This document shows, one piece after another, positions 1-37,688 of a DNA stretch of 63,836 nt. Position 1 is the first letter of the stretch; every line of letters begins with the position of its first letter. The notes under the pieces are model-generated. The model did not search any database. It saw only the letters and a program-made list of their open reading frames with translations, and was not told the DNA's origin. A program made the position numbers and the translations under genes. The stretch is from Rotaria magnacalcarata (taxonomy: Eukaryota), in assembly GCA_965140935.1 (NCBI GenBank), contig CBCSLL010000228.1, positions 14,084 through 77,919 on the forward strand, in the 5' to 3' direction.

Positions 1-794
1 TGTTGGCTACAACTAGTTCGCGGACATTCGAGTAGAAGTTCATCATCGATGATGCCAAAAGGTTTTGCACACATTGCACACCATGGATGAATCTTGCACA
101 AACAAGAATAAAATTTAGTTGCGTATTTGTTATAAAAGAAATACATACAAATTTAATAAATATGTCTTTATGTCGGCTGTTTTTTTTGTGGTTTGGGCAC
201 ACTCGTTAATAAACTTTCTGAATCGTTCTCATCAAAATATGTTAAAATTGCATTATCATTGTCGAATTGTCCATCTTTATAAAGGGCGAAAGCATCGGCT
301 TTCAATTGGTCTATTGAATCGTACTTTTTCTTATTCAATATTTTCTCCTCTGAGAGACAGAAGACAGAAAATTTGCTATCGTTTGCCTTCTGGGAAATTG
401 AAGTTCGATTTGCGATAGTGGGTTCACTAGCGATGGACAATGCAACCCCATTTGAAGTATTTTCTTGTGGTTGATTGTTCATAATAGAAGACTAGTTGAT
501 GAAATTGTTTTCGAACTTATCTGATGGTAAAGACTCGAAAGCGGTGTTAATTATATACAAAAGTCGTGGCAAGAAAAATAAATAGTGGATGGATTCTTGG
601 AAAGTACACTGTGATATGAGTTTTTTAACGCACTGATAAGCAAAATAGGTAAACATGTAAATCTTAGTATATTTATCTTTCACCGTTTTATCTTCATTAT
701 CATCAGGTAGCTTAAGTTATTTTGGAAATTATCAACCTCGTCGTTGACTAATGCAAACAAGTTTTTTCATTTATCTATCCAAATATAAAATTCT

Positions 795-868
795 TGAGGG
801 TGTGGATGTGGGTGTGTTGGCAGAGAGATATGCACGCAAAGCGACACCCACACCCACACCCACACCCT
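795..868. repeat. GT-rich / CA-rich inverted repeat hairpin
   Basis: 'GGGTGTGGATGTGGGTGTG' (797-815) and 'CACCCACACCCACACCCACACCC' (846-868) are reverse complements. They are separated by approx 30 bp. Confidence 0.7.
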
Positions 869-1289
869 AAGCAACGTGAAACACTTAACATCCGGCACCA
901 TATTCATGACGATGTCTTACATCTAATTATTCAATCTAAAAGTTCTAAAAAAATAATGTTGTAAATCCCCATCACTATACCGGAAAGCACATGTTTTTAG
1001 TTTTTTCACAACAAAACCAAAGTAACACATCCATTAACGAAAACTTCTCCTAAAGAAAGTCTAAAAAGCATCTAAAATATCAAGTTATGATGTTCATGAT
1101 TTAATGGAAGATGAATAATTCATACTGAAAGGTTTCAAATTGACAAAAATGAATGAATATTCAGCAGCTTACATGATAGAACTTAGAAAAAGAGTACGCA
1201 GAAACAGCCTTAGATAATTAATTCTATAGTCAATGCGCCAAGTTTGAGTGGCCGACATTTCTAAAAGTGAAAACAGATAAAATATGAAT

Positions 1290-2100
1290 CATTTAAACGA
1301 ATCAAAAATAGTAAACTCATACGTTTAAACGGTTAAAAGCTGAAAAGCAAAAGAGACAAGTAATTTTGTTACCTTATATGAGTCCAAATGAAGAAAAGTT
1401 AATGTTAAAACGATTGAAATCTTCAAAATAATAACACGTAATAATTTGAAGCATTTAAACGTGACAGAAATGATAATTTTGAGCGTTTAAACAATAAACA
1501 ATTCTGGATGAAGGCATGCAAAGAATTTCATTGGACAGCGATGATGAAATTTATTGAACGATGATGTTTAAGCGATTAAATTCTTAATAGTAAAATAGCA
1601 AGATATTTATAGTCGTTTTCACGAGTGTGTATACCTGAAACAATGCGTTTAAATTAAGAAAATTCGGGGAGATATAGGTATGAAAAAATATTTAACATTT
1701 TTTTGGCTCTAGAGTAACATGGATTCACTGTTAAAACGACTAAGTTTAACAGGAAAATGGTGAAAGATAAATGTGGAGCAAAAAACGCATTATGTATTTC
1801 CTTTGGAAGGATGAGCATGATTAATAAAAGATGTCAATCTGGCCGTAATATTAATGGAATTAAAAACGTTCTGATAATTTGTATTACTGATGGCTAGCAT
1901 CCGTTTTTAGTAAAGTGAACATGTAAATGATCAGAAAGTCTCTCTTTCAAGCGTGAAAACGCACAAAAAGATTTCATTTGTTAAAAGTGGTCATGTTAAC
2001 AGGAAGAGGTGAAGATTTGTAGGCGTTTACACGACCACTTTTTTTTAAACGCGTGCGGACGCACAGAAAAGTCCTTTTTGTTACGTTTAAACGCGTTTTT
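1290..2100. repeat. Cluster of the palindromic motif (C/G/A)GTTTAAAC(G), approx 8 occurrences in approx 800 bp of non-coding DNA
   Basis: Occurrences: ATTTAAACGAATC (1292), ACGTTTAAACGG (1322), GCATTTAAACGTG (1449), GCGTTTAAACAAT (1483), GTTTAAGCG (1566), GCGTTTAAATT (1646), GCGTTTACACG (2023), TTTTAAACGCG (2042), ACGTTTAAACGCG (2083). Confidence 0.5.
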
Positions 2101-2491
2101 GAACATTCTTGTCTGCTTGGGTATATAACCCACTGTTGATGTTGACATTGAATCAATCAATATTTTAAAATCTCAGCTGTATAGTAAAACCTGTTTACGT
2201 ATTAAGTGTTCCATAAATCAATTAAGGTTTGAGATATTTTTATTATACAAGTGAAAAGTTATTTTTTTAAAAACGTAAGTACAATAAGATCATTGAAAAA
2301 GGGAGAACTCATTAAATTTGTTGCCTTAAAATATCATAACAATTGGTGTTGATGGTAATTTTTGAACATTATAGTTTCGGGAACATCTTGTTCAGTATCT
2401 TTTACTTCGTTATTAAATTCTTCAGGTTTGTATGTTCGAAGATAGACAAGTCAAAGTATTGGACTTGCCATAAATGTAGTTGCAAGCGCCA

Positions 2492-3891
2492 TTATAAAAA
2501 AAACATAGTAAAGAGGCCAGGTGAAAGAATATTAAGTTGAAGGTCAATATTTAATGCAATAAGTTCTACTAAACCTCGCGTATTCATTAGTATACCAACG
2601 CTTGTTGAAAATCTCCATGAACGATGTGTTACACATTTGGTCATCAAAGTTGCTGGCAGAAATTTAATCAACGTAGCAACAGCAAAAATAAGTACAGTTA
2701 TACCACCATGCAATGGATCATTTAACGAACCTAAACTTGTTCTCATGCCACTGGCAGCAAAAAGAATGGTAGTAATAATTCAACCGTGACCAATTCTATT
2801 TTCTCAAATAATTCAACAGTAAATCGTCCTGATTTTGGATATATCACACCGACAGTAAATGCACCGAAAAATGAATGTATACCAAGTGTATCGGAAAAAA
2901 AGATGATCCAAGAAGAAGAAGAAATATACCAATAAGAAATGAATGATTCATTTCAATATTACGTTGAATTAAAAGTGCATGTACTCGATTAATGGACCAT
3001 CGAACAATAGTAAACATAAAGAGAACATAACCAACAGAAATTAAAATCACCCTATGGATATATATCACAAAAGTTTTTTGTTAATCATTAACGTCTATTT
3101 TGAGTGTTTACTATACTTACCAGAAGCTAACAATACCTGACCCTTTGGCAAATGCGCCAGCAAGAGCCATGAACACCAACCCATCACGTCGTTCATTGCT
3201 GCACAACTAACTGTTAGAGTACCAAATGGCTACGATAAAAGTTTAGCCGATGTAAGAATAGATGCCAGTACAGGAAAAGCAGTAGATGACATAATTACTC
3301 GATGCTGCAAATAGAATGAATGCAATTCTATCGGGCGGTTTAAATCCATCGCGATTATTAATGTCATACAAATAGATAGAAAGTGCTGCACCAGCACCAT
3401 ATGGTACAATAATAGTAGCAATAGATATTGGAAGTGAATCTTCCCACCGACGTTTAAGTTGTTTCTGTTCAAGCTCTAGACCTAAATTGAACATGAATAA
3501 AATAAGACCAATGTCGCCAACTAATGTAACATAGTTTCACGATGATGGAGGAAATACACGTGTCGATCAAAAGTCACTAGTGCCCAATACTGAATGACCA
3601 ATGATAACTCCAACAATAATCTCGCCGATGACCTATATTCATGATGTATAAAAATCAAAAAACTATATAGGATTCATCTCTTACTGGTGGTTGTTTGATC
3701 AATGCAAGTAACCATCCCATAATGCGAACAAGTAGAAGAATAATAAAGATTTGCATGAGAAAACGTGCCCAATAGTTAACATCCAATGATGGATCCGCAA
3801 ATATATCGACTATGAGAGTATGCTTCTTGCTGTCTGAGAGAAAGAGAGTGCATGCAAGCATGCATGAATGTTTTGTATATTTATATTGCAC
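2492..3891 (-). CDS. Cation/H+ antiporter (CPA / Na_H_Exchanger-domain protein); multi-exon gene, exon blocks approx 3655-3891, 3243-3494, 2844-3068, 2492-2746
   Basis: Minus-strand ORF blocks translate to antiporter-like segments: 'RIMGWLLALIKQPPV' near the N-terminus, 'LGLELEQKQLKRRWEDSLPISIATIIVPYGAGAALSIYLY', and 'GILMNTRGLVELIALNIDLQ', which is the conserved CPA2 motif. The blocks are separated by short introns. Exon boundaries and the 5' end are not resolved. Confidence 0.6.
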
Positions 3892-11315: not shown

Positions 11316-12036
11316 CTTTGTATAACTCGTGATTGTTGCTAAATGAATAAAAAAAAACAAAAAGACAAAAAAAATGCAACATGGGTCAATATAAGTGAAA
11401 ATGATAAGAGATTTCTTTTTCTTCGTATGTTGATATCTGTTGCTTATTCATTTGAAGATATTTGAGAAAGACAGAGATAAAATAAAAACTAAATGCGTTG
11501 ACTATTTGCTGCAAGAAAAACGAAGCAACAAAAGAAACAAAGAGATAACTAGATACATGCGAGTGTCTAAGTAAATATTTGAAGTGAAGATGAAAAATGT
11601 GCTTCCTACTAATTCAGAAAATGTTCTTTGGAGATCTTCATTTCTTATAATAGATTTCAATAAGTAAATAAATCACTTAGAGAGTAAAAGAAATAAAATT
11701 CGTCTCAGAAAATTTATAGCGATTTTCCATCGTAGAATTCGAATCTTTGACAAATCGTATATACACTCTTGAATTTTGTATTTATGGATAAAATCTATGT
11801 AGAGGAGCTACTAAATCTCTCTACTGATCAATAAAAGTGTGTAGTTATCTCGTTGGTGGAGTTATGCGACAAATTAAATTTCGTACATCGTTATCCAACA
11901 GATATTTCAGTTATTTTTCGATGCGCTTTTCTCTATGAAACAAGGTAAGTTATAATTGAAGTGAGTTCATCCGGTTTATCGTTTCTGTGGGAAACGATAG
12001 AAAAAAGCTTCGAACTTCTCCGATCCCTATACGTCT

Positions 12037-12165
12037 ACGTCCTTTCTATAAGTCTTTATCTTGTACATATGTATCTGCATCTCCTAACCTATACATCGAA
12101 ATCCCTACATCTAAATATTTACGTCTTAATCTAATATGTCCAAATCTTTACATCAAAATAATACA
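12037..12165. repeat. Degenerate approx 12-bp satellite array (unit approx TACGTCTAAATC), orientation 1
   Basis: Run of approx 10 degenerate units: 'TACGTCTACGTCC', 'CTACATCTAAATATTTACGTCTTAATCTAATATGTCCAAATCTTTACATC' and so on. Confidence 0.6.
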
Positions 12166-12582
12166 GATAAATCCTCACGCTCCTTCTAGGTTACCCTATC
12201 TGACGATCCCATGGGATTTTAACAATATCACCTGGTATGCTAGTAACATCATGTAGGATGCTAGCAGCACCTGTGAAGCAGCAGAATCCAAATTCGTATG
12301 TTAAACTCCACGATGGCTAAAGGTAGATGCCGCTGTGTACATAGAGACAAGCGTTGGTCGCGACACTAAAATAAAAGGTTGTGGGGTTACTCATTGCTTT
12401 CCTATGCATAATCTTGCATTACATATAATTGTGCGCTATTGTTTCTTTTTTTTTCCTGAGTTTACGTGGGACTTAATTCGAATTGAACAATTGATATGAA
12501 TCTCAGGTAATGTCTCTAGCATTCCAAGTGAGGGTCAGGGAGGGAATAATCATGGATGGGCATAAAGATTTATCGATGCTGG

Positions 12583-12752
12583 TTTAGACGTGCTAGATTA
12601 GAATGTACAGATTAGAACGTATAAGATTTAGACGTATAGATTAGGACATATCTGATTTAGACGTACAGATTTGGATATGATAAATAAATTTGTACTGAGA
12701 AAACAATAACTGTGACTGAAGTATCAGTTTATTGGCGATTTAGACGTACTTC
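12583..12752. repeat. Degenerate approx 12-bp satellite array (unit approx GATTTAGACGTA), opposite orientation to 12037-12165
   Basis: 'GTTTAGACGTGCTAGATTAGAATGTACAGATTAGAACGTATAAGATTTAGACGTATAGATTAGGACATATCTGATTTAGACGTACAGATTTGGATATG', plus an extra unit 'GATTTAGACGTAC' at approx 12738. This is the reverse complement of the unit in the 12037-12165 array. Confidence 0.65.
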
Positions 12753-13797
12753 AGAGCCCCTCCAGAAATCTTCGTCTGTTTTTCTATCAGCGTTTCCGAG
12801 AGAAATCATAAAGCGGATTACATGAATTTAAGTCTAACAGTTTACTACAAATTTCTATAATAAAATTTTCCAATTGAATTATTTTTAAAAGATCTTATTA
12901 ATTTGTTACTAAAAACCATATTTCAACTTCTAATGTTTTTCTAGATTCAAACTTTTATCAGTTTGATTCCAATTTTTATCAACAACAAATGTACGATCTT
13001 TGTTTCGCTGTAATCATTACATGATATCGACTGTGAAAGATTTACAATTGTTGGATTATAGAGAAATTCAGTTGTAATTTTCTCACGTGTTAAACTAAAT
13101 GAGCTGCAAACAACAATGTTCATCTAGAATGGGTCAATATGACAAAACATAACAGACAAAGAAAACAACTTGATGATGTATAAGTCTTAAACTAGACATG
13201 AACAGCGTCGTGTTCACTTAGAATAAATAAATCATGACCAAATGGCATCCCGTGAAGTTTTTTACGTCTAAAAAAGTATTGAACCCGAAGTCTGAAATCA
13301 TATAATTCATATGATATTGCAAAATAAATACCTTTCGAATATTTTCCAAAAGGCTAATGGCTTTCTGCTCGATAACCTTTTCATGCGCAAAGTCATATGT
13401 CACGCTCGCCTTATATATTTTTTGTTTTATGACTATACGTGACTTGAATTTACTCTAAATAAACTTGAATACTTTACACCATAGCTGTTTACCATAAAAT
13501 GTAGGCAGAATAAAATTGCATTAATATCATTGTCATTAACGAAATCGTATTCAACTTCTTTTTACCGTGCATTTATAGACCTGCATGGGCAACCAACAAG
13601 AAATTAAAAGAAAAAATGCGACTCGAAATAAACCCATTCGCCAAAAATTAGAAATTAATAATAAGACTGAAAATCCATGTTTTGACTATAGAATTAAATA
13701 ACGCGTGCCAAAAATTAGTTTTGCTTCGGTGATCACTATGAATTCCAAGAAGCGTCTATAGAAAAATCTATGCATCACTGAGATTATTTCATGTTCT

Positions 13798-14140: not shown

Positions 14141-14295
14141 GTCCTTTTCATAAAAAAAAAACATTCTAGATATTTATAAATAATGACTTTTTCTCGCTCT
14201 TGGTGCTTTCCTCAGATTGTTTTAACACTTAAGAATGTACTTAGACATAGAACGAGCATTCAAACAAGTATTTCTAATTTAAAAAATGTGAAAAC

Positions 14296-14458
14296 ATCGA
14301 ATTTAAATCTGAGTGTTATGTGTACTTCAAAGAGTAAAACTAATTGATGACAACTTGATTTTGATCAAACTATCTAAAAAAAATAAAAAAACAAGTGAAT
14401 ATACTTTTTCACTCTTTGAAGTACACATAGCTAACACTCGGATTTAAATCCGAGGTTT
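14296..14458. repeat. Hairpin-forming inverted repeat (approx 45-bp arms, approx 65-bp spacer), MITE-like
   Basis: 'CGAATTTAAATCTGAGTGTTATGTGTACTTCAAAGAGTAAAA' (14299-14340) is reverse-complementary to 'TTTTCACTCTTTGAAGTACACATAGCTAACACTCGGATTTAAATCCGAGG' (14407-14456). Confidence 0.75.
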
Positions 14459-14984
14459 TTGCATTTATTCTATAAGACATTTGATCTCATCAAGATACAT
14501 CTCTTGTCACTAAATTGCAAGGAGAAAATACGGGCGTGCTAAATTATCATGGACCACACTGTCTGAGACCCTATCCGATGACCACTGACTCTACTCTTCG
14601 AATGATATAATATCTTAGAAACCACAGAAATTGAGCTCAGATTCGTGTTTAGCTTTGAAAACTGTGTAAGAAGAGTTATTTTGAATGGATTTGTGTTTGT
14701 ATCTAGCGAGATTACGAGTGTAAGCAGCCTCATTAATCTATACGAGATATATGATAGATACAAGTATCAATATTTTCTTAATAAATCACCAATATTAATA
14801 GCTATCGAGTTTGGGTTTTCCCTTTCGATGATCCTTTTGACTAGCTACAAAACCAGGCATTTGTAAAATTCCAAACTACTGGTCATCTGAGACATATCTA
14901 GGCAATTTGGTTTCTGGATGCAGTTTTGGTGCATTTTGACACCTTTTTCAGGCGATTTTTTGTTAGAAAGCTACGATCTGGTTC

Positions 14985-15305
14985 AAAATTAATATCAGAT
15001 TCGGAATCAGCGTTAAACACTGAGTCGATCTATATATGTTGTGAATAATTCTGAGAGAAAAATTGTTTTTTGAAAAATCCCTGTACTCCCCCTCAGGGAT
15101 GGTCTGGTCAATAATGACAATTTTTTCGATAGCTTAGCCATTTCTTGACGGATTGCTTTCATCTTCGAACTCGGCTGAGATATTGATAAGATCATTCTGT
15201 GTACAAAATTTCATGACAATTGGATGAGGCTTTCAAAAGTTATCGTGTTAACGGACGGACGGTCGGACACACTGACAGAATCTAGAGTGTACTCAATTTT
15301 TGAGT
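14985..15305 (+). repeat. Interspersed repeat, copy A (approx 320 bp seen; family also present inverted at 63541-63836)
   Basis: 14988-15305 aligns with the reverse complement of 63541-63836, with roughly 80-85% identity by eye. Shared blocks include 'ATATCAGATTC(G/A)GAATCAGCGTTAAA', 'GAAAAATCCCTGTACTC(C/T)CCCTCAGGGATGGTCTG', 'TTCTTGACGGAT', 'CATCTTCGAACTCG' and 'GGACGG(A/C)(C/T)GGACACACTGAC'. Confidence 0.8.
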
Positions 15306-15713
15306 ACATAAAACGAACACACGCGCCTCTTCAATATAAAAAGTCAACAGTTCATTGTTTTTTAATTATGAAATTTTATTAAACACATCTTAAATTCTCT
15401 CCTAAGACAATAATAACTGATCCTATTCCACATATGTCTCAATGGATTGATAGCTTGAACATTCTTTTTTTTTCTACTTACTAATCGAACTTGAGGAAAG
15501 ACGCATCTTCACTTGTATTCAAATAAACAATTCTATTGATCATATACACATACGCCATTACACATTGATTAGATAAGATCTATGTCATATACGTTTCAAA
15601 TTTCTTTATTTGATTTTTAATCAACAACGAACATTTATATCATACATGCATATCTATGAAACAGAGAAGAAGAAGAAAAAAGACCGGTATTCTTATGCTC
15701 CTAAATGAGTCTT

Positions 15714-16880
15714 TTATTTGTATTTAAATCCAAATGCAAATCCACTTGTAGTTAATATTGTACAAGGCGAATTGCGATCCATTAATTGAAATTGTTCACA
15801 ATTCGATGAGTGATTTGGATTCAATGAATCTTCATTATCGTAAAAACTTGAATGACGAAAGCAATGACAAATATTTATTTTTAATTTCATAAAAAGACGT
15901 TTCCATTCACGACGAAATTTTGAATCAAATAAAATATAAATATAAAAATTTATTGCGAATGATATTTGATATATTGAATGAAAATACTTTTCTAATAGAA
16001 GAATTAATTTTGTTTCAACTATTTTGTGTCCATATAGTAAACGCCATGTATGAATAGATGCATACGGGGCACATATTATTAAATATGATGTCGAAACAGC
16101 TAACAGTAATTTCGTCATTTTACGTGAAGCATTTCGACGTGTTATTTCACGAATTTTATTCAATTGAGAATGATTTCGAAAAAGAAATTCATGTGGACTT
16201 TGTTTCATTCGTCGTAAAGATATTAATATAATTGTATTCATTACTATGATCGAAATATACGGAATAAGAAACACAACAAAGCAATCCACTATATCCATTA
16301 ATTCATTTATCCAACGTAAATGTTTCAATGAAAAACATTGCCCATTAACAATACCGATAAGAAATGGTAAATATGAATAAATTAAACAAGCAATGAATAT
16401 TATGAATAAAGCTAAACATCGAGAACGATACCATGAAAGTACATGTGAAACACGAAATGGTTTTACAACAGCAAATAAACGTTGAGCTGTAAATGACACT
16501 GTATAATAGGCACTTATAAAATTACATACATATGTTAAATATAATGTTAATTGGCAAACTACTGGACGATGAAGGAGATTTATATAATTCGATACCCATA
16601 AACAAAATAAAACAAATAAATATATTGTATCCGAAATAGCCATATAAAAAAGAAATGGATACACGGACATATTCGAGCCCATGGATGCAATCGTCGTACG
16701 TAATGCTCGTTGACCAAAAACAATAATTGCAAAACCATTTCCAATGCATCCGATTAACACTAATAGTAACCAATAGATATGACGAAAGAAAAAATCCAAT
16801 AGAGTTATAGGTGATGGCAGTTCCGCCGTATCCAAACTACTATTTAAACTCGTCGATGTGATATTCTCTGCATCAATCAT
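15714..16880 (-). CDS. Intronless rhodopsin-like (class A) G-protein-coupled receptor, orphan; 388 aa
   Basis: This is a single uninterrupted 388-aa ORF with seven hydrophobic helices. The N-terminal ectodomain has N-glycosylation sites (NITS, NSS). The TM3 end reads 'SFTAQRLFAVV', an AQR variant of the D/ERY motif. TM7 reads 'AINFYIYILF', an NFxxY variant of NPxxY. It has a long basic third intracellular loop ('SLRRMKQSPHEF...RRNASRKMTK') and a cysteine-containing C-tail. Confidence 0.8.
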   Translation of the reverse strand: MIDAENITSTSLNSSLDTAELPSPITLLDFFFRHIYWLLLVLIGCIGNGFAIIVFGQRALRTTIASMGSNMSVYPFLFYMAISDTIYLFVLFCLWVSNYINLLHRPVVCQLTLYLTYVCNFISAYYTVSFTAQRLFAVVKPFRVSHVLSWYRSRCLALFIIFIACLIYSYLPFLIGIVNGQCFSLKHLRWINELMDIVDCFVVFLIPYISIIVMNTIILISLRRMKQSPHEFLFRNHSQLNKIREITRRNASRKMTKLLLAVSTSYLIICAPYASIHTWRLLYGHKIVETKLILLLEKYFHSIYQISFAINFYIYILFDSKFRREWKRLFMKLKINICHCFRHSSFYDNEDSLNPNHSSNCEQFQLMDRNSPCTILTTSGFAFGFKYK

Positions 16881-19695
16881 TATTCAAATCTAAAATATCA
16901 GTTTAATTCAAGATTTTTATAGTTTCTGAGTGTTTCTCGTAATGATGAATAATGGTTCGATAATTATCGAAAAGAAAATCTTTTTATATAACACTCATTA
17001 AATGTGAAATGACCCTCATAGGAAAATAATGGCGGAGTATACCTCGCTCTTCTGTTTTTACTTAAGTTTTCTGCTTCTTGTCTCTTATATTCACATTTCA
17101 GATAATGACAGTTGGACATTCAAGAGTACGATTAAACCCTAATAGATGCTAAATTGCTAGACAATATATCATATTCATATGCAAATACTGAACTAATCTA
17201 TTTACTGTCGTAGAATTTATATTAAACGAGATACCTCATGATTGGAATGCAAACAGAAAAGAATAGCAAGAGGCAAATTCTAAATATTTCTACTCAATAA
17301 TACAATAGTATATATCTATATATACGAAATAAACCTACTTCAATGCAACATAAGTCAATTATGATGTAAATAATCTTAATGAGGACGAAAAACACAAGTA
17401 GCACACGTTCTACATATGAGAGACTTCAATGTTGTATAAGTAAAATGTTGTCTATTAACTATCGAGGGGTTTTTATGTTATTAAAATTTATGTTTGTGTA
17501 GACTATTAACTTTTTTTCCTGCTGTAATTCCAACGTTAATGATACGCACGGAACAAAAACTATGCGAATATGATAAATAATTAGTCAAATCGTATGAATA
17601 GTTTTTTCCTAGGAGCGTTTTCCTTTTCCCTATGCTAATGATAAATGCTTGTAAAATAATTAACGATCAGTTCCTTCACGAAAAGTCAACATGATAATTA
17701 TGCAGCAAAAACAGATGAATATATGTCATGAACTAGAAACTTATTGCGAGATTGAAGACTCAATGTAACTGAGTGAGAAAATGTCTCATAGGAGTACTGC
17801 AACGATTGCAAAAGACAAGTGTTAACCCATTCGATTGTCAAATAACAACTAATTTATTTTCCATACTTGGAAGCAAGACAAATGCCTACCGTTTACGTGA
17901 CCTGATTGTTATCTATCGTTGGAGCTATTGAGTAGAAAAATAAAACAAAAATACTGATTAGTCTTATGACAACCAAAGAGAGGAGATGAAAGCGTAGGAT
18001 TAGATACTCAATTTCCATGATAATATGTTACTCGGCTAGTGTTAAGTAGTAAAACTAAAGCGAACTCTAGATGAAAACAAAACAAAGTGTTCCGCAACAA
18101 ATGCAAATAATTGTTTAAAGATATTTTATTATCATATATAATAAAAGTCAACTGTCGGGAATCTTAGTTCAACACTTGGCATATTAAAAAAATAGTCGAT
18201 AGAAAAGAATGCGAATCATCAGTTTAGAAAGAAACAAGAAGCAGACGACAGAACTGTCAGCAGTTACATCATATTGGTTTTGTATTTTCAACATTAAACA
18301 TATTCGATAAATATCAAATACTTAAAATTCTGTATTTCATCAAAAAGAAAAGGAAAAAATGTTGCTATTCAGATAAATACAAAAATGAACATTAGCATGC
18401 GTTTGTGGGCCTAAAACGACTGTTCTTATAGAGAAAAAGAGAATTTTTAATTTTAGCCTGCCAATTCGATTTTAACAGCATTATCACGTCTATTTAATGG
18501 ATAAAATAATAATTATCTTATGAATATTCTTTTATCTCAGTTGATCATAAAACAAAGAAAAACGATTTCGTTCAAATATTGCATGTATTTAGAACCGTAG
18601 AATTAAGTATGGAAAAAACCAGCGATAGCAATTTACGTTTTTCTCGGTGTTGAAGCATCAAATTATCTAGTTTGAATACGTATATATTTGAGTAAAGTTC
18701 TCATTATAAATGAAATAAAATATTCTAAGTCGCATATAAACGCAAAGTTTTTGGTTTTCTTCACGCCTACTATTAGTAAGCGCGGTACCAAAAATATGTA
18801 ATCATTGAACTCATATAAACTTTAATTGTGCTCTTTGACGTGTATGATGAACTTATTCTGATATTGAAAATTACTTTTATTAAAATCTAATCCTTTAAAA
18901 TGATAGCCATGCATTCAGTCATGATCACTTCTTGTTTTGTCTCCTTTCAATTGAACAATTGGCGAAGTTTCTTTTCTCTTGTAAAACACTACTATACCCA
19001 ATAATCAGGCAAGGAGTCCGTTTGATTCCAGTCTTTTTTTTTCTAAAGCTTCGATGATAAATGTATTATTTTACTTTTGAGAGAGTTTTCATTTTCTACT
19101 TTTAGGATTCATATCATATTTTTGCCGGTACAACCGAATTTGGATCCAATGTCTATCCTTTCTTTCTATTTAACAGACTATTAATCTGAATCAATGAACA
19201 TGATATATGGAAATGTCAGTCGAATTAATGGCTTGTAATTACTTTTTTTTATAACAGAAATCTTCCTCATTTACTCACGTGTTGCTCAATTTATAAGCTA
19301 ATTGACTTTTGAAAATAACGGTTTAGCAATAAAAAAAAAGTGCAACTTTATGACGATGATAATGGGTGTGATTTTTATTAATCAACAATAAGATAAGAAT
19401 GTACATTTTATTACGCTCAATCTAAAATAGAAGTAAGATTTCCCTATTTCGTACTTTTACTCCCGAGAAAATGCATTTTTACAAAAACAAGATAGCGCAA
19501 CGTTTCGATTGAAATTTAAAAACGGTCTGCTCTTTCTAATCGAATGATGCTCAGCTTCGAAAAATCTTTCGTTTTGTGGCAAAAATGAGTTATATTATTC
19601 TTTTTCATTAAAATGCGTTTTCGCAAGCGTAACTTGTGAAATACGTAGTAGACTATGACGTGTAAGAAAAATGTATGCTTGCTACTTGTGAGAAT

Positions 19696-21019
19696 AATGA
19701 GTCTTATTCACACTTTACTTGTTGGCCACGAACATGTTTAAAACTGGCCCCCCAAATAAATTTTTGTTGCTAAGAGCGGTTTATTTCCTTTTACCTATCT
19801 TTGACAATCGTCTTCCTTGCTTAGAGCATGTCCTCTTTGGTGTCACCCCGATTCGTCCCTTTTAATTTTTTCTTAACTCGTCCCATTCCGAATTTGTACC
19901 TATCTCAATTCGTCCCATACTTAATTGGTATCTAATTTTTCGGAATGTCATGATTATGCCCATCTATTGAATGCTAAATATATACTAATTACGATACCTT
20001 ATGTCTCGTTGGCCTTCCGAAGTACGAAAAAAACTTAGAAAATAGCGTGCACAAAGAAAATTGCTTTTATTTCTCTAGTAAACCAAATAACTACCATGCT
20101 TAAGTTCACATATAGCGAACGTTCAAAGCTTGTGTTGAACTTTAAAGGACATCAATATACCAAAAACCGGGAAGATAAAACTGGTCAAGAAAAAGAACAA
20201 TAAAGAGAGTAATAGCTTTAATGTAATCTTATTTTTCTTTGATAATAAATAGTTCTTTCTCTATAGGGTATTATATTAATTTACAGACAATCAGGGACGA
20301 GTTAAGAAAAATTTAAAACGGACGAATTGGGTATGGGACCAATCAGGGGCGAATCGGGGCTAAACCGTCCACTTTTCGCCTTTCCTCTTTCTCCTCTCCT
20401 TAATTGCGTTATCTCTTTGAAGTTGTCTTTTTCTTTTCTTTTTCGTCAAGACATGATCAACATCGGAAAGATACAAAAGTTATGTTTTTGCTTATTTTTC
20501 TAATCATTACAACTATCAACCATAAAAAGATTTGGATAATTTTTGTCATACGAACTTTTCGCTTAAAACTAAATTCTTCTGATAAATTACGACTGTTTTT
20601 TTTTAATTTTCACATCACTCCTGCTGTTATTATTCAAGTATTAACATATATGAAATAGGTGTTTTATGAACTAGAAATTAATTGTAACAAATTTAGTTGT
20701 AGTCTATATAAATACATCGTAATCCTTTTATCGTTGATAGTTGTAATGAATAGAATAATAAGCACGAACATAACTTTCGTATCTTTCCAATGTTAATCAT
20801 TTCTTGACGAAAAAGAAAGGAAGAAGACAACTTCAAAGAGATAACGCAATTAAGGAGAGGAGAAAGAGGAAAGGCGAAAAGTGGACATGCTCTAAGGAAG
20901 GAAGACGATTGTCAGAGATAGATAAAAGGAAATAAACCGCTCTTAGCAACAAAAATTTATTTGGGGGTCAGCTTTATACATGTTCGCGGTCAACAAGCAA
21001 AGTGTGAATAAGGCTCATT
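19696..21019. repeat. Complex nested inverted-repeat (foldback-like) structure, approx 1.3 kb: outer arms A 19696-19834 / A' 20881-21019; inner pair B 19845-19930 / B' 20281-20362; pair C 20360-20450 / C' 20800-20885
   Basis: A 'AATGAGTCTTATTCACACTTTACTTGTTGGCCACGAACATGTTTAAAACTGGCCCCCCAAATAAATTTTTGTTGCTAAGAGCGGTTTATTTCCTTTTACCTATCTTTGACAATCGTCTTCCTTGCTTAGAGCATGTCC' is the reverse complement of A' (approx 90% identity). C 'CACTTTTCGCCTTTCCTCTTTCTCCTCTCCTTAATTGCGTTATCTCTTTGAAGTTGTC...CGTCAAG' is the reverse complement of C' 'CTTGACGAAAAAGAAAGGAAGAAGACAACTTCAAAGAGATAACGCAATTAAGGAGAGG...GAAAAGTG'. B/B' share 'CCCCGATTCGTCCC...TTTTAATTTTTCTTAACTCGTCCC'. Confidence 0.8.
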
Positions 21020-21896
21020 CAAATTTTCAGTCGCACAAGTAGTAAAGGTAAAGAAAGAATAATCGTCTAATTATATAATCCAGAGTGTAATAAAAAATGC
21101 AACCTATTATTGTCCACCAGAGCAGAAAGTCTCTATACCAATTACAATATCCTTAGAAATTCTTTTACGAACTTCACGTTTGAGTACCCTTAGGATTTCC
21201 ATCCGAACTACTGACGGTGTTTATTACGATCTGCATGTGTTACGTTAAATATAGCAAAAATGCTCTATTCCGAACATCCGGTAAACACATTACGATCTTC
21301 CTGCTGTCTGTTGCGATCTCCGACACATAGATGTTTACGAACTCCTGTCATAAATTTTTACGAATAAAATTCATTTCCGAACATCCGGCAACGTTTACTG
21401 GTGTTCGGAAGAGATGAGACGAAACGTAAGTCACCCGAAAAAATAGGCAATTTACTTTGACAGCAGCATCAAAGTTTCTCAACTTAACCACACGAACGGA
21501 AAAAATGATTTTTGACCTCGAATAATAGGGCTGAATACACTAAAAGCGCAAGTATCTATATATATATATTAATGAGAGATCATTATTTTGCATCATACAA
21601 GAAAAGCAATTCAGTAGAATTCTTGCAACAATGTCTATTCAATACGTTAATAGATCATAGGAGCTGGAGCTTTTTCTGTCTGCACGAGACAAATTTCATC
21701 AAGTTTTTAACTGTAATTACAGTAAAAGTGAATAGTTACTTACTCTTATTAGTCTGGGAAATCTTGAGAAAAACAGCTACCGCATGTGTTAGATTTGAGA
21801 ATTCGGTCACAATGATCTTTTCAACATTCAAAGATGGTCATAGAAAAAGTGCATCAGCAAAAGGCATAACGTATTTTAGACGGAAATAGTGATATA

Positions 21897-23000
21897 TATA
21901 TATATATCAGAGACCGAAATCGAATCGAATCGAATGAATAAAAAAAAATGAAAAAAAGCCTAATCGAATCAATTCATTTTTCTTTCAGTTTCATTCGGCT
22001 ATTCAAAATCATTTTCTTTGTTCTGGTGTTATGGTCGAGGGTAGTTGACTAGTACACAAGAGATGACGAATGAAAAACGACGTCCACTGTTTCTCTTCCT
22101 TTGTTTCTGTCAGTCGTGCTTATTCAATAGTCATCCTTGTTCTGTTCATATCTTGAAGGTGTGGGTGTGAATTAAGGCATGTGATTGGTGTATTAAGAGG
22201 TAAGTAATCTTTTGGAGGTGATTTAACTCTTAATGTATCAATTAGATTGCTTAATACGACTTTAACTTTATTCACATTTCCAGTGCGATTGGGTTCTTGA
22301 TATCAGCCTCTTCATTTATTAAGCATGGGTACGGTCAACTGTAAATATAGATCCATATACAGTAAATAACATTATTTTTCTTCGTTCTATACAAAATAAA
22401 CTTATTTACTTACTCTACTTAGATGTGTTCATTAATTTATATTTTATGTATTCTTTCTTGAAAAAAATGAATAACCCAGGTCGACTGATCCGATAGGAAC
22501 CTGGAAATATCCTACACTCCGATACAATTCTATTGGATTCCAGGTCGAGGAATCAATGTCGGATCCTCAGTGTCGGAATCCTATGAACTTCCGATGACAT
22601 CCAACGGTTTTTCGTTGGAATTCATAGGAATCCGACACTGAGGATCCGACATCGATTCCTCGACCCGGAATCCAACGATAATTCTGTAAGATCTGACAGG
22701 ATCCGATAAAATCGTATTGGATTCCAGTCGGATCGGATGGGTTCCGATAGGTGCCTACTGGCGGATTGCTCGACCTGGGAATTCTTATGTAATTATATAT
22801 TCATAAATTATATTTATTCAACATATTATCTATAGAAGATCGACAGACTATTCTCATTCTAAGAAGATGAGAGTCTGAAAACAACAGTACCATGTTTTGT
22901 AAACCCAATTTGAGTCGAATCCGGATCCCGGTCCTGAAAACCCGAATCGAACCGAATGGCACTTTTGTCGTTCGTTTCGGTCTCTGACTCTGATATATAT
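21897..23000. mobile_element. Non-autonomous DNA-transposon-like element (MITE-like, approx 1.1 kb) with terminal inverted repeats, inserted between (TA)n tracts
   Basis: Left end 'TATATATCAGAGACCGAAATCGAATCGAATCGAATG' (21893-21930). Right end 'CATTCGGTTCGATTCGGG...TTTCGGTCTCTGACTCTGATATATATA' (approx 22935-23000). The two ends are imperfect reverse complements (core CAGAGACCGAAA / TTTCGGTCTCTG). (TA)n flanks both ends. The interior has no ORF and contains a 45-bp-arm perfect palindrome at 22543-22665. Confidence 0.55.
22543..22665. repeat. Near-perfect palindrome (45-bp arms, approx 33-bp loop) inside the MITE-like element
   Basis: 'GGTCGAGGAATCAATGTCGGATCCTCAGTGTCGGAATCCTATGAA' (22543-22587) is reverse-complementary to 'TTCATAGGAATCCGACACTGAGGATCCGACATCGATTCCTCGACC' (22621-22665), with a single mismatch. 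Confidence 0.85.
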
Positions 23001-23127
23001 ATGTTGCAGGGCAGATTGAAATTCAGTTCAGATTAAAATAACTTCGATTTCAACAAAGAAAAATTTTAAACTGAACTAGTTCAGATCAAAATTATTTTAA
23101 TCTGCACTGGATTTTAATCTATCCTAC

Positions 23128-23165
<38 letters not shown>
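23000..23165. repeat. (AT)n microsatellite (approx 23128-23162) preceded by a short inverted repeat 'CAGATTAAAATAA...TTATTTTAATCTG'
   Basis: Approx 17 AT dinucleotide units at 23128-23162. Arms of the inverted repeat are at approx 23021-23036 and 23090-23105. Confidence 0.8.
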
Positions 23166-26646: not shown

Positions 26647-27792
26647 CTACATGGAAGTAGATAGCCGCTGAAAAAAGATTACGATTCGATGGAAACGTTT
26701 AACAGAAATTTCGAAGTCACTTATTTTGATAAGACTTTTGCTTTTGATTCTTGCCGGAAGGTTTTTCATACAAGGCAAATATGAACTATCGCTGTCAAAG
26801 TGTGTTGTTTTTCATTATAAAATAGGAGGCATCCCTAATGGCGAACCAGCGTTGTATTTATAAAAAAAAATGACGAGTTTTTCTTATAAAATTACTCTCA
26901 GGAAACTCAAGCATATTTATTTTACTTACACGACTCCTACTATTTTAAATAGTTAGTTTTTATCCTTATCAAATTGAAATTTACACCAGTACATTAGCAC
27001 GTGCGTTTTTTTACTTTATACAAAATATCGATTTATTCGTTTCTATGGTACTTTTTTTCACCTAAAATTCGATTTTTAATAAAGAACTTCATTCAAACAG
27101 AACGATGCTTTTTTAACGTTCAACAAATAGTAGACATTGAAAATCAACATTCTAAAGCTCTATCGAACTACTTTTAGACAAATAATACGAAATCTGAATA
27201 TGTGGATAAGAGTCAATGTTGATTCTTTCACTAACAACTCAGAAATGGGATCGTCGCTGAATACCAGGACACCTCTTTCTTTTAATCTTTATCAAGCAAA
27301 ATGTGTCTATATTTTATGTTTTTAATACCGCTTTCTTTCGTTGTATGTTTGGCAACTTCGGACATGGCATAATTTGGTAGAGTTGGAATTCTTTCTCCAA
27401 TAATAACATTTGCATGTGTATTTGCATGAACGATTGGTTTATATTTTGAAAATAAATAACCTTAGCAAAGGAAAAAAAAATAATAACAAACCTATGTTTA
27501 GTAACTTCTTTTCTATGTATATACCTGCAACTAATCCACTTGCTATTCCGGTTGTAATTAGATGAGGTTTAAAACTTTGACGAAAAATAAAGGCTAACCG
27601 TGATCGCATTGTGTTTGCTAATTACGACCCTTATTGTACCTAATTAACTTCGCCCAACACCATCTTTGGTATTTTAAATGATTGATCAATAGTAACAACC
27701 AATGAAATGCATGTTCGTTTTTACGGTACAAACTCAATGATTCGATTCGGTAGTTGTCAGTCCTGAATATGTAATTCATTTTTGATAGTGTT

Positions 27793-30361: not shown

Positions 30362-33300
30362 ATGACTGATTCGAAAACTACCGGTGGTAAGCTGCATGAT
30401 GAATATGTTGTTCTTCTAAATATCGATGATGGTACTCTATTTAGTATACCGAATTCCTCCTTTCTACTATTTGCATGTTCTCGATCAGAACACAAATGTA
30501 ACTCGACTTGAAGTAGGTCCTAAAACTTTTGTTAAACAAGATCATGAAAAAGTTTTACTGGGACCTGAAGGCATGTTAATTATTCCGTATGTTTAATTAT
30601 TGTTTGTTTTTTCGCGAGATAAAATATGTTTTCGTTCATAGTCCACGTCATTATGCTGTTATTGATAATCCAGCAGTTCGAGATAAAGATGGTCAAGTTG
30701 TTATAGATGCTAATGGTCAAGTTAAATTATTGCATTCCGATGTTGATATTCGTTTTGCACAAGAACCATTTCCACTTTATCCTGGAGAAACTCTCAAACA
30801 AAATGTTACGCCATTGAAAGTTATTGAACCTAATTGCGCACTACGTCTTCGTACTGTTCTTGACTTCACCAATGATCACGGTGAACTAGTCCGAGCTGGG
30901 GATGAATTTCTTTTCCAGGGACCTGGTATGAAACCATAAGATTTTAGCGGATAAATAGAAAAATTTTTATGTTTTGATGTTTAGGCACTTATTTTCCACG
31001 TAAGGAAGTTAGCGTAGAAGAACAAATTAAAGCTGTTATTCTTAAGCCAAATGAAGCTGTTCGTTTACGTGCTAAGAAAGAAATGATAGATCGAAGTGGT
31101 GTAGAACGAGAAACCGGTGAAGAATGGCTTAATCGAACCGTCGGTTCATATTTACCATTAGCCTATGAAGAAGTTGTCTCGGTTGTCAAAGCCTATGTAC
31201 TTACTGATAAAGTACGATGTTGTGATTCTGTAAAGCATCCTTAATATCCTATTATATGCATATTTTGTTTTCAGAAAGCTCTTCATGTTCGTGCTTTACG
31301 TACGTTCACTGATTTATTCAAGCGTAAGCGTCTTCATGGTGAAGAATGGTTAGTCTATGCAAGTGATAGTGAAACCTATATTCCTGATGTTTACGAAGAA
31401 GTATGTTATCTTGTGTTTTCTTCGATGCAAAGAAAATATCCTTTTTTCTAGGTTGTTGGCGTTGTATCAGTGACAGTATTGAACTCTCGTCAATATTGTG
31501 TTATTGTGGATCCAGTTGATGCCGATGGTAAACTTCAACTTGGAAGAAAAAAACTAATTAAAGTACGAGAAAAATAATTGCATTTATCAAATATAAATAA
31601 TTATTTAACATTTTTCTATTTTTCAGGGTGAAAAAACATTCTTTCTTCAACCTGGTGAAAAATTAGCAAATGGTATTCAAGATGTTTACGTACTTGAAGA
31701 AGACGAAGGTCTTATTCTTCGTTGTACTGAGTCGTTTAAAGAAGACGAAGTAAGTTTGTGCTTTTGTTTATGGTTAATAGAAAATAACGACGATCTCTAT
31801 CAATAGAAAGTCTTACGAAACCCTGGTGATCGTTGGATGGTTCGCGGACCTAAAGATTATATACCGGCTGTTGAAGCCGACGTTGTACTTCGACGTAAAG
31901 CAATTCCATTGGATATTAACGAAGGAATCTATGTTCGTGATGTTAAAAGTGGTAAAGTTCGTGCCGTCATTGGCACAACATATCTGTTAACTGAAAATGA
32001 GGAACTTTGGGAGAAAGATTTGCCAGCACAAGTCGAACAATTACTTGTTTTAGATGCTCGACACTTCGAAGATAAATCAGGTACACCAGCTGCTATTCCA
32101 CCAAGAAATAAATCAAAAGTTGTTAGCTATCGCGTACCGCACAATGCTGCTGTACAAATTTATGACTTTAAATCTAAGAAGGCCCGCATTGTCTTTGGCC
32201 CTGAACTTGTTATTCTTGGCCCTGATGAACAATTTACAATTTTGAATTTATCCGGTGAAAAACCCAAAGTACCAAACAAAATTCGAGCAATCTGCCTTCT
32301 ATTGGGACCAGAATTCTCAAGTGATATTGTTACAATTGAATCAAGTGATCATGCTCGTCTTTCACTTAGACTTTCATACAATTGGCATTTTGAAGTAAGA
32401 ACCATTGAGGTCTTTTTCATTAAAAAGTAAACTGTTTTATGTCCAGGTCAGTGATCGTGAAGATAGCAAAGAAGTTGCGAAACTCTTTTCGGTTCCAGAT
32501 TTCGTTGGAGACTTTTGCAAGGCTGTTGCGGCGAAGATTCGTGGTGCCGTTGCTGGTATTTCATTTGATGATTTTCATAAGAATTCAGCAAAAATTATTC
32601 GTGCTTCTGTCTTTGGTCTTGATGAAAACAAACGAGTTAACAAACGTCTCGTATTTCCACAAAATAACTTGATTTTAACTTCGATCGATATTCAAAGTGT
32701 CGAGCCTGTCGATCAACGAACACGTGATGCACTTCAAAAGAGTGTTCAATTAGCTATTGAGGTAAGATCAGCGTAATTGACATCATTCATTTCAATGAAT
32801 TTTGTTTTGTTAGATTACAACAAATTCTCAAGAAGCTCAAGCAAAGTAAAAATCATTGATGAATTCAAATTGAATGTTCGCAATATTTCTCTTCATAGAC
32901 ATACGGCATCTCGTACAGAACAAGAAGCGAAAGGTCATTTAGAGAGACAGAAGATTGCTGATGAAGCTGAAGGTAAAAAAAAGAATTGATTAATACTTTT
33001 GTAAACAAAGATTTTCATACGTTTTGTTTTTGTTTGTAGCCGAAAAAGAACGTCGAAAACTATTACAACTACAAGCTGAATCATCAGCCGTTGAATCAAC
33101 TGGTCAAGCTAAAGCTGAAGCTCAATCACGAGCAGAAGCTGCTAAAATTGAGGGTTCAGCTGCTGTTGATCAAGGTAAATACTCTTGTCTAGATATGATT
33201 CTAGATTTCATCACATAGATATCTTTTATTTTAGCTAAACTTCGTGCCGAAGCAACAAAAATTGAATCCGATAGTGAACTTCAACGTTTAACACAAGCAC

Positions 33301-34557: not shown

Positions 34558-37500
34558 CTATTCATGTTCTTCGACATGATAATTGCTCGAAGTTGCAGTT
34601 GATGTACGAGGTTTTTGATTCATATTTCCGGTCATACCGCCTAGAAGACCTTGTCCGAATCCCATAAGATTGATTGGTGAACGGCCATCGGTAACCAACA
34701 TTGATTGAAGACCAAGTGCTTGTAAAAGTTTAACTTGTGTATCTGGACCAGACGTCGCAATAGCTTGTATGGTTGATGCACCAATCGCTTCAACTTGTAA
34801 TTTGAATTTATCGGTTTCAATTCTTGACATTTCAGCTTTTTTCGTGATTTCTAATTCATTTTGTTCACGTAAATATTTGATTTCAGCTTCGCGTGCTAAT
34901 TTCAAACGTTCTAATTCAGCCTCAGCTTCAATACGTGTCGCATCGGCTTTGAGACGAGCTAATCGAAAGAAAGAAAAAGAAAAAGTTTATTATTTAAACA
35001 CTTCGATTTTATTTTTACCTTGTTCAACGGCAGCTTTGCCTTCAATGAGAGCTGATTCAGCTCGACTTTGTGCTTCAGCTTTAGCGTGACCACTGACTTC
35101 AACAGCAGCTGATTCAGCTTGCAATTCAAGAAGTTGTCGTCGAACTTCCTCAGCTTCGGCTTCATCTTTTATGCGTTGGCGTTCGAGTAAACCTTTGGCT
35201 TCTTGTTCTCGACGTGAAGCTTCATGTTTAGCTGCAGCCTCTTGTGAATTTGTTGTAATCTAAGAAGCCAAAAAATTCATTGATACGGATGAAATCAATT
35301 ACATGTATCTTACTTCAATAGCCAATTGAACACTCTTCTGAAGTGCATCACGTGTTCGTTGATCAACAGGTTCGACACTTTGAATATCAATCGACGTAAT
35401 AACGAGATTATTTTGCGGGAAAACGAATTCATCTCGTACACGTTGATTCGAATCAAGACCAAATACAGCTGCACGAATAATATGAGCTGAATTCTTATGA
35501 AAATCATCGAATTGAGTTCCAGCAACAGCACCGCGAATACGCGATGCAATAGCTTTAGCTGCATCACCAACAAAATCGGGTACTGAAAAAAGTTTAGCAG
35601 CTTCTTTTTCGTCTTTAGTGTCGTTAACGTCGAAATGCCAATCTAAAGAAAAAATAGAGAGTTCAAAAAACATTTTCCTTTTTGAAATTTATCAATTTAC
35701 TGTAAGATAATTGAAGTGAAAGGCGAGCATGATCAGCTGTTTCAATAACAATAACATCGGTAAAGAAATCAGGACCAAGAAGTAAACAGAGTGATTGAAT
35801 TTGGTTCGCTTTTTTTGGCACAGAACCACTCAATGAAAGTAATGTAAAATGTTCTTCTGGGCCAAGCATAACAAGTTCAGGGCCAAAGATAATGCGTGCT
35901 TTTTTAGCCTTATAATCATAAATCTGTACAGCGGCATTGTGTGGCACGCGATACGCAACTAATTTCGATTTATCACGTTGAGTTGCGCTTGATTTTGCAC
36001 TTGCTTGCGTTGTCGTAGTTGCTTGCTGTTGAGCTTTATCTGCGCCTTGATTACGTGTTGGAACATTTCGTTCGGCTAGCGGATCACGAGAAAGTAACTC
36101 TTCAACTTGTTTAGGCAATTCTTTTTGCCAAAGTTCTTCATTTTGTGTGAGCATATAAGTTTCACCAACAACAGCTCGTACACGACCGGTTTTGATATCA
36201 CGAACATAGATACCTTCGTTTTCATCTAAAGGCATTGCTTTACGACGTGTAACAACTTCAACTTGTGTTGGAGGAATATATTCGCTATAGCGAGAAAAAA
36301 ATTAAAATTTTCAAACTAAAACTCAATGAATCGGTTTCTTACTTTGGCCCACGAATCATCCATCTGTCGCCGGGATTTCTTTCAACATGTGCTTGTTCAT
36401 CGGTAAATGCTTCGATACATTTAAGAATAACACCTTCATCTTCACCCAATATATACACATCTTGAATACCATTTTCAAGCGTCTCACCGGGTTGAAGAAA
36501 GAATGATTTTTCGCCAACAATAAGTTTCTATTAGAAACAAGAAATGATAACTTAGACAAAAATAATACTAGCACAAACCTTTTTTCCTAATTGCGGTTTT
36601 CCGTCTTCAACTGGATCAAGAACAACGCAATATTGTCGTGAGTTAAGTGTTATTACACCAACTACGGCCACTAACTGTTCATAAACATTGAGTGTATGAG
36701 TTTCAGTATCTTTGAGAGTTACAAGCCATTCTTCTCCATTCATACGATTTTTACCAAAATCATCCGTAAATGTTTTCAGAGCACGAAGATGTAATGCTTT
36801 TTTATCTGTTAATACATGAGCACTTTCGACCGACACAACAGTTTCCTAGATTATGGAAATAATAGTTAGGAGAAGAATTTTCAAACGTAATTTCCCTTAC
36901 ATAGGCAAGTGGTAGATAAGCACCGGTTTTTTTTATTAACCATTCTTCGCCGGTGACACGTCGTTGACCTGTTCGATCGATGATTTCTTTTTTAGCACAC
37001 AAGCGAATAGCTTGATTCGAGCTAATGACCGTGGCACGAATTTGTTCTTCTACGCTAACTTCTTTTCGTGGAATGTAAGTGCCTGGTCCTTCAAATAGCC
37101 ATTCGTCACCAGCACGACGCTGTTCTTTTGCTGTATCATCGTCGAAGTCGAGTACAGCCTTTAAGCGTAAAGCTGAATTAGCTGGTACGACTTTAAGTGG
37201 AGTAACTGGCTATCAAAGACTAGATTGTAAAAATGAAAAGTAATAATATAAATTTTTCTACCTGACGAAGAACTTCGCCTGGATAAAGTGGAAATGGTGA
37301 TTGATCAGTTTGTGCAAGACGAATATCCAAATCAGCATGAACAAGTTTAGCTTGGCCATTGGCATCGAATTGAACTTGTCCTTCGACATTGCGTATGACA
37401 GGCGATTCAACGACACAATAGTGACGTGGCCTAAATATTATTTTTATTTTTACTTTGTTGTTTTTCGAATTAATTTACGTACGGTACTGTAATCATTTTT

Positions 37501-37688
37501 TCTGGTCCGATCGTAACTGTTTCATTGTCTTGTTTAATGAATGTTTTAGGACCAACTTCAAGTCGTGTGACATTTGTATTTTGATCCAAAACATGAATAT
37601 AATAGTAGGGTGGTATGCGGTACAATGGACCGGCACCACCTTTACCAGAAGATGTAGTCGATGTTGACGGATTCATATTATTTGTCAA
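34558..37688 (-). CDS. MVP: Major vault protein, copy 2 (diverged paralog, convergent with copy 1); exon blocks approx 37470-37688, 36552-37002 (several exons), 36300-36500, 35663-36235, 35299-35673, 35040-35215, 34558-34960
   Basis: Minus-strand translation: '[69 protein letters not shown]' (N-terminal exon), '[80 protein letters not shown]', '[43 protein letters not shown]', '[29 protein letters not shown]...[26 protein letters not shown]', and C-terminal '[27 protein letters not shown]'. By eye it is approx 70-80% identical to copy 1 over conserved blocks. It has extra Q/T-rich linkers ('[31 protein letters not shown]'). Confidence 0.9.

Follow-up and report, generated by a model that had tools for sequence, protein, structure and literature searches.

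The ~1.3-kb foldback described here lies in intergenic nuclear DNA of the bdelloid rotifer Rotaria magnacalcarata. We interpret it, with a probability of roughly 0.6, as two nested and decayed relics of non-autonomous class II (DNA) transposons: a foldback-type palindrome and, within it, a Mutator-like MITE. The three inverted-repeat pairs that make up the block are best read as these two elements, a near-palindrome consisting of A + C, a 178-bp centre and C' + A', and a second element, B, nested in its left arm (Table 1).

Genomic setting

The window, by which we mean the whole stretch of 63,836 nt that was analysed, has a G+C content of 32% and contains few long ORFs. The foldback is located 2.8 kb upstream of an intronless gene for a rhodopsin-type GPCR of 388 aa (15714-16880, minus strand), the protein of which shares 92% identity with one from Rotaria socialis. 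Several NCBI assemblies encode precisely this protein, among them GCA_905261645.1, GCA_905273325.1 and GCA_905319835.1, which represent R. magnacalcarata individuals MAG1-3 (Rg_MAG1-3; Nowell et al., 2021, PMC7943196). The original prediction placed the foldback in a gene desert, and this is borne out in five of five assemblies, where ~7.2 kb without a called gene extend from the GPCR gene to a sulfite-oxidase-like gene (from ~24114).

Inverted-repeat anatomy

Self-alignment and the predicted DNA fold both recover, far above chance, the ~1.3-kb foldback of three inverted-repeat pairs that had been proposed, and the pair coordinates and the fold agree with the proposed nesting order, A-B...B'-C...C'-A'. 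The A/A' pair (19696-19838 with 20878-21019) extends over 143 nt at 91.6% identity (E=2e-53) and the C/C' pair (20367-20537 with 20716-20886) over 171 nt at 92%, while the entire segment 20367-20886 aligns with its own reverse complement at E=7e-117. The ends of B pair over 38 nt (19847-19884 with 20294-20331, 92%) and again over 22 nt (19839-19860 with 20345-20366). As single-stranded DNA, the 1325 nt of the block are predicted to fold into a nested three-way hairpin of -356 kcal/mol.

Two details of the arrangement need to be redrawn. An AT-rich segment of ~350 bp had been assigned to the interval between C and C'; this spacer measures 178 nt, and the AT-rich segment, ~360-410 nt long, lies within B/B'. 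The A-C junction, said to recur, is intact only once, as the 20-mer GAGCATGTCCACTTTTCGCC at 20873-20892 on the minus strand. On the plus strand the same 20-mer is broken by element B, with GAGCATGTCC ending at 19834 and GTCCACTTTTCGCC starting at 20367. Read as its reverse complement, the right arm thus runs ...GAGCAT GTCCACTTT TCGCC..., and the left arm runs ...GAGCAT GTCCTCTTT (19839-20366) GTCCACTTT TCGCC.... Because the junction is intact in the right arm and split in the left by a flanked insert, A and C form one continuous arm. This does not support an array of two or three copies of one short element in alternating orientation, as had been suggested: A and C are the halves of a single ~300-bp arm, and B is unrelated to them. 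The general class that had been named, a foldback transposon or MITE cluster, was well chosen, given that B is an insertion with a target-site duplication (TSD) and an internal empty site, that the block is absent from R. socialis, and that other insertions with terminal inverted repeats (TIRs) or palindromic structure are found nearby.

Table 1. Coordinates of the foldback, of its component elements and of the host repeat that flanks it (positions in the window)
Feature	Position	Strand	Remarks
Whole insertion, outer near-palindrome with nested B	19694..21018 (1325 bp)	.	Present in R. magnacalcarata, absent from R. socialis
Outer element, left arm, distal part (A)	19697..19838	+	Pairs with 20878-21019; last 9 nt are the left TSD copy of B
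Left copy of the B target-site duplication, GTCCTCTTT	19830..19838	+	8/9 bases match 20367-20375
Element B, 528-bp non-coding TIR element (MITE)	19839..20366	+	Removal together with one TSD copy restores the arm
B 5' end, terminal repeat GGTGTCACCCCGATTCGTCCC and subterminal motifs	19839..19934	+	Inverted pairs, direct repeat, end-to-end alignment
B 3' end, terminal repeat (reverse complement) GGTTTAGCCCCGATTCGCCCC and inverted motifs	20294..20366	-	Inverted pairs, alignment
Right copy of the B target-site duplication, GTCCACTTT	20367..20375	+	
Outer element, left arm, proximal part (C)	20367..20537	+	Pairs with 20716-20886, 92% over 171 nt
Outer element, centre, AT-rich, weakly palindromic	20538..20715	.	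Self reverse-complement alignment spans 20367-20886
Outer element, right arm, uninterrupted (C' + A')	20716..21018	-	Holds the junction 20873-20892 and the unduplicated B target 20878-20886
Host-side 9-bp perfect inverted repeat, CTACTTGTG, partner CACAAGTAG	19682..19690 / 21034..21042	+	Brackets the insertion site

Element B, a nested miniature transposon

Element B is demonstrably a non-autonomous cut-and-paste element that arrived as a transposon insertion. Its 528 bp, with an AT-rich, non-coding interior, hold stop-free frames of no more than 54 codons, in keeping with the small size (under ~800 bp) and lack of coding capacity that characterise a MITE. The termini begin GGTGTCACCCCGATTCG... 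and form the terminal inverted repeat expected of such an element, 21 bp in length (GGTGTCACCCCGATTCGTCCC / GGTTTAGCCCCGATTCGCCCC) with 17 of the 21 bases paired. Subterminal motifs of the form AAYTCGTCCC follow, three to four per end and in inverted orientation: GATTCGTCCC (19850-59), AACTCGTCCC (19875-84) and AATTCGTCCC (19907-16) at the 5' end, and their inverted counterparts at 20294-303, 20319-28, 20335-44 and 20346-55 at the 3' end. TRF detects in the 5' end a 16-nt period with 3.4 copies (19872-19926).

On either side of B stands a 9-bp target-site duplication, GTCCTCTTT / GTCCACTTT, with eight of nine bases matching; a target-site duplication is expected of a MITE, and one of this length of a MULE. 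The other arm of the outer element retains the target in unduplicated form, as a single GTCCACTTT in the same context on the minus strand (20878-20886), and thus provides a built-in empty site; removal of B and one copy of the duplication yields an uninterrupted left arm that is colinear with the right arm. The 9-bp duplication and this internal empty site together identify B as the product of transposition, and since only one arm is interrupted, B is later than the outer element. A duplication of 8 bp was also considered, but because it shifts the TIR register by one base and makes the termini asymmetric, we favour the longer one.

The combination of a 9-bp TSD with ends built from a terminal motif and subterminal repeats makes B a candidate Mutator-like element and points to a transposase of that kind (MULE, 'type 2 foldback'), with Merlin, whose elements generate TSDs of 8-9 bp, as the alternative. 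In the Rotaria loci that we fetched, no autonomous partner for B was found; the only transposases there are Tc1-like, with the TIR CAGTGGCTACC..., and are unrelated to B. Nor did these loci yield a transposase partner for the outer element.

The outer near-palindrome

Once B and one copy of its TSD are removed, the outer element measures 788 bp and its halves are colinear. Two arms of ~300 bp each, ~92% identical, surround a centre of ~180 bp (178 bp), so that the element has the long inverted repeats and non-coding character of a foldback. Arm identity per 50-column block, counted from the tips, is 82, 96, 92, 98, 90 and 88%, and then drops to 56-60% in the centre, with the axis of symmetry near 20626. 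The 1.3-kb block contains no ORF of at least 100 aa, its longest being 84 aa, and neither Rfam nor tRNA scanning gave a match anywhere in the window. For tandem sub-repeats in the arms, TRF gives only two 14-nt traces of 1.9 copies and one 6-nt run.

The ends of the outer element read ATGAGYCTTATTCACAC... and, to our knowledge, match no known superfamily terminal motif. No TSD of fixed length is present at any choice of boundary, the flanks being ...GTGAGA(ATA) and (T)CAAATT, although a decayed 2-bp TA/TC duplication may be represented here. Neither the flanks nor the ends fit Tc1/mariner (TA), PIF/Harbinger (TWA), hAT (8 bp) or a Spy-like element (AAA^TTT, no TSD). The insertion falls between A and T without a TSD and is Helitron-like on this point alone. 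A Helitron was rejected: whichever strand is read, the ends are ATAATGAG... and ...GGCTCAT instead of 5'-TC...CTRR-3' with a 3' subterminal hairpin, and the palindrome takes in the full element.

Presence across assemblies

Five other R. magnacalcarata assemblies (loci L001-L005) contain the whole structure, in the same order and with 99.75-99.9% of the sequence shared, and because none of the five is identical to the window, six independent assemblies are represented. Among them, ~1.5 kb contain six variable sites (19738, 19746, 20915, 19812, 20560 and 20562). Four of the variable sites fall in the arms, and at three of these one of the two alleles agrees with the opposite arm while the other does not; two of the three are separated by 8 bp and occur in one individual (L004). 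The pattern reflects either recent mutations that still segregate or gene conversion between the arms.

This concordance bears on the worry, raised at the outset, of an assembly artefact, and equally on one of amplification; either would take the form of a chimeric inverted duplication. There is precedent, in that doubt was later cast on palindromes reported from an early bdelloid assembly, as effects of assembly or scaffolding (PMC5916493). In an artefactual palindrome, however, the copies are perfect, whereas here the arms mismatch at ~8% of positions and one arm only carries a 528-bp insertion with its TSD, and the window and five assemblies from different individuals agree on the arrangement with just the six variable sites noted above. 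We regard an artefact as exceedingly improbable.

An empty site in R. socialis

The block is missing from six R. socialis loci, where the flanking DNA can be aligned, at ~84.5% identity, as far as 19693 and again past the block. Deletion of 19694-21018 from the window joins CTTGTGAGA to TCAAATTTTCAGTCG, and this junction aligns with CTTGTGAGA joined to TCAATTCCAATGTTCAGTCG in R. socialis. The site of the outer element, occupied in one species, is thus empty in the other (GTGAGA^TCAATT), and because this empty site is clean, we take the 1325 bp to be an insertion specific to the R. magnacalcarata lineage. The alignment fits an entry after the split between R. magnacalcarata and R. socialis. It compares these two species, and with a private segment of ~835 bp in R. 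socialis close by, the history of the site may be one of replacement rather than insertion. Divergence between the arms (~8%), set against that between the flanks of the two species (~15.5%), likewise fits insertion after the split. Provided that the two arms started out identical, the date of insertion would be about half-way back to that split.

The empty site also helps in judging whether the outer palindrome could instead be two copies of an asymmetric ~390-bp A-C element inserted tail-to-tail, an inverted dimer or MITE cluster with the third element between or within them. All 1325 bp are missing from R. socialis at one clean site, no host DNA separates the supposed copies, and weak palindromy runs through the centre; a solo A-C unit was seen neither in the window nor in the Rotaria loci compared, and two hits at exactly one point would be needed. 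In its favour, the arms are 92% rather than 100% identical, as independent members of a family would be, and identity falls sharply toward the centre, where the inner ends of two such copies would lie. On balance, we consider a tail-to-tail pair quite unlikely, and retain the reading of one palindromic element that was later interrupted by B.

The insertion site

The insertion is bracketed by a short host-side inverted repeat (Table 1). Perfect inverted repeats of at least 9 bp straddle just 0.8% of random window positions (empirical p ~0.008), and the host repeat is kept in part in R. socialis. The 1.3-kb block thus occupies the loop of a short hairpin that was already there. R. socialis carries a private segment of ~835 bp (L008, 5790-6624) in the same ~20-bp loop, ~20 bp from the empty site. 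This segment has an internal inverted repeat of 110 bp (84%), its motifs TTACGATCT and GTTCGGAA resemble window positions 21140-21410, and neither TIRs nor a TSD are recognisable in it.

These features of the site lend some support to an origin of the outer palindrome in break repair, as a one-off product in which fold-back priming or template switching made an inverted duplicate of ~400 bp captured from elsewhere, with B inserted later. The break point would lie inside a pre-existing short hairpin (9-bp repeat, p ~0.008), a plausible fragile site, and the independent ~835-bp rearrangement of R. socialis ~20 bp away suggests a break-prone spot; the outer element, moreover, has no TSD and no other copy in the DNA searched. 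Neither arm, however, is homologous to local ancestral sequence. For lack of such local homology, a simple fold-back of the flanks in situ is excluded and capture followed by inversion is needed. The 178-bp centre is itself weakly palindromic, palindromic MITEs with long arms are a common and well-known class, and the same intergenic region is a demonstrable sink for mobile elements. We therefore hold a repair origin to be a serious but unlikely alternative to a foldback-type transposon.

A more speculative view, to which we give very little weight, is that the 788-bp outer palindrome is neither a usual MITE nor a single accident but belongs to a TSD-less class of hairpin-shaped DNA, mobile or repair-generated, that enters the loops of short pre-existing, cruciform-prone hairpins. 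It is favoured by the 9-bp repeat that brackets the site and by the independent rearrangement of R. socialis within the same loop. If general, it would imply a structure-directed insertion or palindrome-forming pathway in long-asexual bdelloids.

Searches for further copies

The Rotaria DNA compared for copies amounts to ~0.2 Mb in total and samples ~0.1% of the ~178-Mb genome. Within the window, self-comparison for a second copy of the outer element or of B shows only the element's own arms, and at the orthologous loci, five from R. magnacalcarata and six from R. socialis, there is nothing but the orthologous copy or the empty site. Both elements are likewise without another copy in an additional ~100 kb of unique R. 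magnacalcarata DNA and in TE-rich Rotaria DNA around Tc1-like transposases related to that of L005 (14 loci, ~150 kb, many overlapping).

Larger collections were searched as well, of which JGI metagenomes, IMG/VR and GTDB contain no rotifer genomes. An exact-pattern scan of JGI metagenomes returned 0 matches for the outer terminus CTTATTCACACTTTRCTTGTTG and 10 for the B subterminal block, all of them chance matches confined to the pattern. A two-block B pattern had 0 matches in IMG/VR, and a 23-mer from the outer arm had 0 in GTDB genomes. A 1196-aa pseudo-protein made from all stop-free frames found no match at E<=0.01 in a collection of 5.8 billion proteins, in which the window's own ORFs are evidently uncalled too.

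Other repeats in and around the window

Downstream of the foldback, a TIR element of 1.09 kb (~21908-22995) has TIRs CAGAGACCGAAATCGAATCG... / ...TTCGTTTCGGTCTCTG and is flanked by (TA)n. R. socialis lacks the 1261-bp segment (21898-23159) around it, and within the element is a palindrome of 143 bp (22533-22675) with 55-nt arms at 95% identity. A 130-bp palindromic element within (TA)n (23003-23132) is present in the window and absent from GCA_965120335.2 (L001), and is an insertion/excision polymorphism within R. magnacalcarata. Just beyond it, GCA_905319835.1 (Rg_MAG3, L005) departs from the window after 23138, either through structural variation or because another haplotype or an assembly join is represented. 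The same locus carries a full Tc1-like transposon (~1750-3705, plus strand) that starts with TA followed by CAGTGGCTACCAAAATTATCCAACAAG... and encodes an HTH_Tnp_Tc3_2/DDE_3 transposase.

A dispersed repeat of ~420-520 bp occurs at 14898-15313 and again at 63538-63836, where the second copy is cut by the window end. At its end is a GTGTACTCA...TGAGTACA hairpin, after which the sequence is A-rich. An additional copy is present in R. socialis (L008, ~690-1212, plus strand) at the site that corresponds to 26865-26869 of the window. Adjoining the copy at 14898-15313 is an imperfect palindrome of 211 bp (14270-14480), 71% self-complementary. An 864-bp segment (11962-12825) is present in R. magnacalcarata (window, L005) and has no counterpart at the R. 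socialis locus. On a larger scale, 30447-33179 and 35014-37622 form an inverted duplication of 67-80% identity that includes several ORFs, a gene-scale palindrome around ~34.1 kb.

Discussion

The nested arrangement suggests an order of events in three steps. First, a ~788-bp non-coding element entered GTGAGA^TCAAAT after the R. socialis split, by an inferred mechanism; its architecture would have been that of a foldback or palindromic MITE, almost all of it one long inverted repeat. Second, the unrelated 528-bp element B inserted in the left arm at GTCCACTTT, where a staggered cut and fill-in duplicated 9 bp. The subterminal motifs of B are predicted to be the binding sites of a transposase acting in trans. 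Third, both elements have decayed, to arms that are ~92% identical and a TSD that matches at 8/9 positions, in a form present in all six sampled assemblies. More broadly, small mobile elements have collected in this intergenic region, which supports a mobile-element reading in general.

Both elements have partial counterparts elsewhere. For the outer element, the comparison among palindromic MITEs is with the PAL-type elements of C. elegans, and among foldback elements with Drosophila FB, which makes a 9-bp TSD, and with Galileo/Kepler/Newton. In all of these, as here, a non-coding element consists nearly entirely of an inverted repeat around a short centre, and is intergenic and lineage-specific. 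In contrast to FB and to Galileo, which has a TSD of 7 bp (PMC4168063), the outer element has no TSD, and unlike strict Drosophila FB elements, its arms are without tandem sub-repeats.

For B, the relevant model is Muta1 of Aedes aegypti, a MULE with 8-9-bp TSDs and TIRs composed of a terminal motif and 12-bp subterminal repeats, classified as a type 2 Foldback TE (PMC5225508); MULEs in general are recognised by TSDs of 8-10 bp, typically 9 bp (PMC5225508). B resembles Muta1 and its ~500-bp non-autonomous derivatives (PMC5225508) in its 9-bp TSD without obvious sequence preference and in its ~0.5 kb of non-coding DNA. As in Muta1, its ends combine a short terminal motif with several inverted subterminal repeats, here of ~10-16 bp. 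It differs from Muta1 in having three to four subterminal motifs per end, compared to nine 12-bp repeats, and in sharing no sequence similarity with it.

Within bdelloids, a MITE fraction exists among the repeats (PMC7943196), and an indel of a foldback-like DNA TE has been reported from gene-rich contigs (PMC2861651). Our locus is likened to that indel by description, and the species differ, Adineta and Philodina there and Rotaria here. The palindromes of the 2013 Adineta vaga assembly (PMC5916493) are, similarly, inverted duplications in a bdelloid genome, but they span tens of kb, consist of homologous genes that share a scaffold and have in part been attributed to scaffolding, whereas the structure described here is 1.3 kb and non-coding.

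If the region became single-stranded or were transcribed, the fold model indicates that it would form a long nested hairpin. Formation of a cruciform, or of dsRNA that feeds small-RNA silencing, is a conceivable effect of such a structure.

The locus is otherwise ordinary intergenic transposon debris. Its value for annotation lies in the exact boundaries that it provides for two apparently undescribed non-autonomous DNA elements of R. magnacalcarata, and it illustrates that a small palindrome in a bdelloid assembly may be real. It also gives modest evidence that a DNA transposon with a 9-bp TSD moved in an asexual lineage after the split from R. socialis, and so bears modestly on the old question of whether DNA transposons are still active in the long-asexual bdelloid rotifers.
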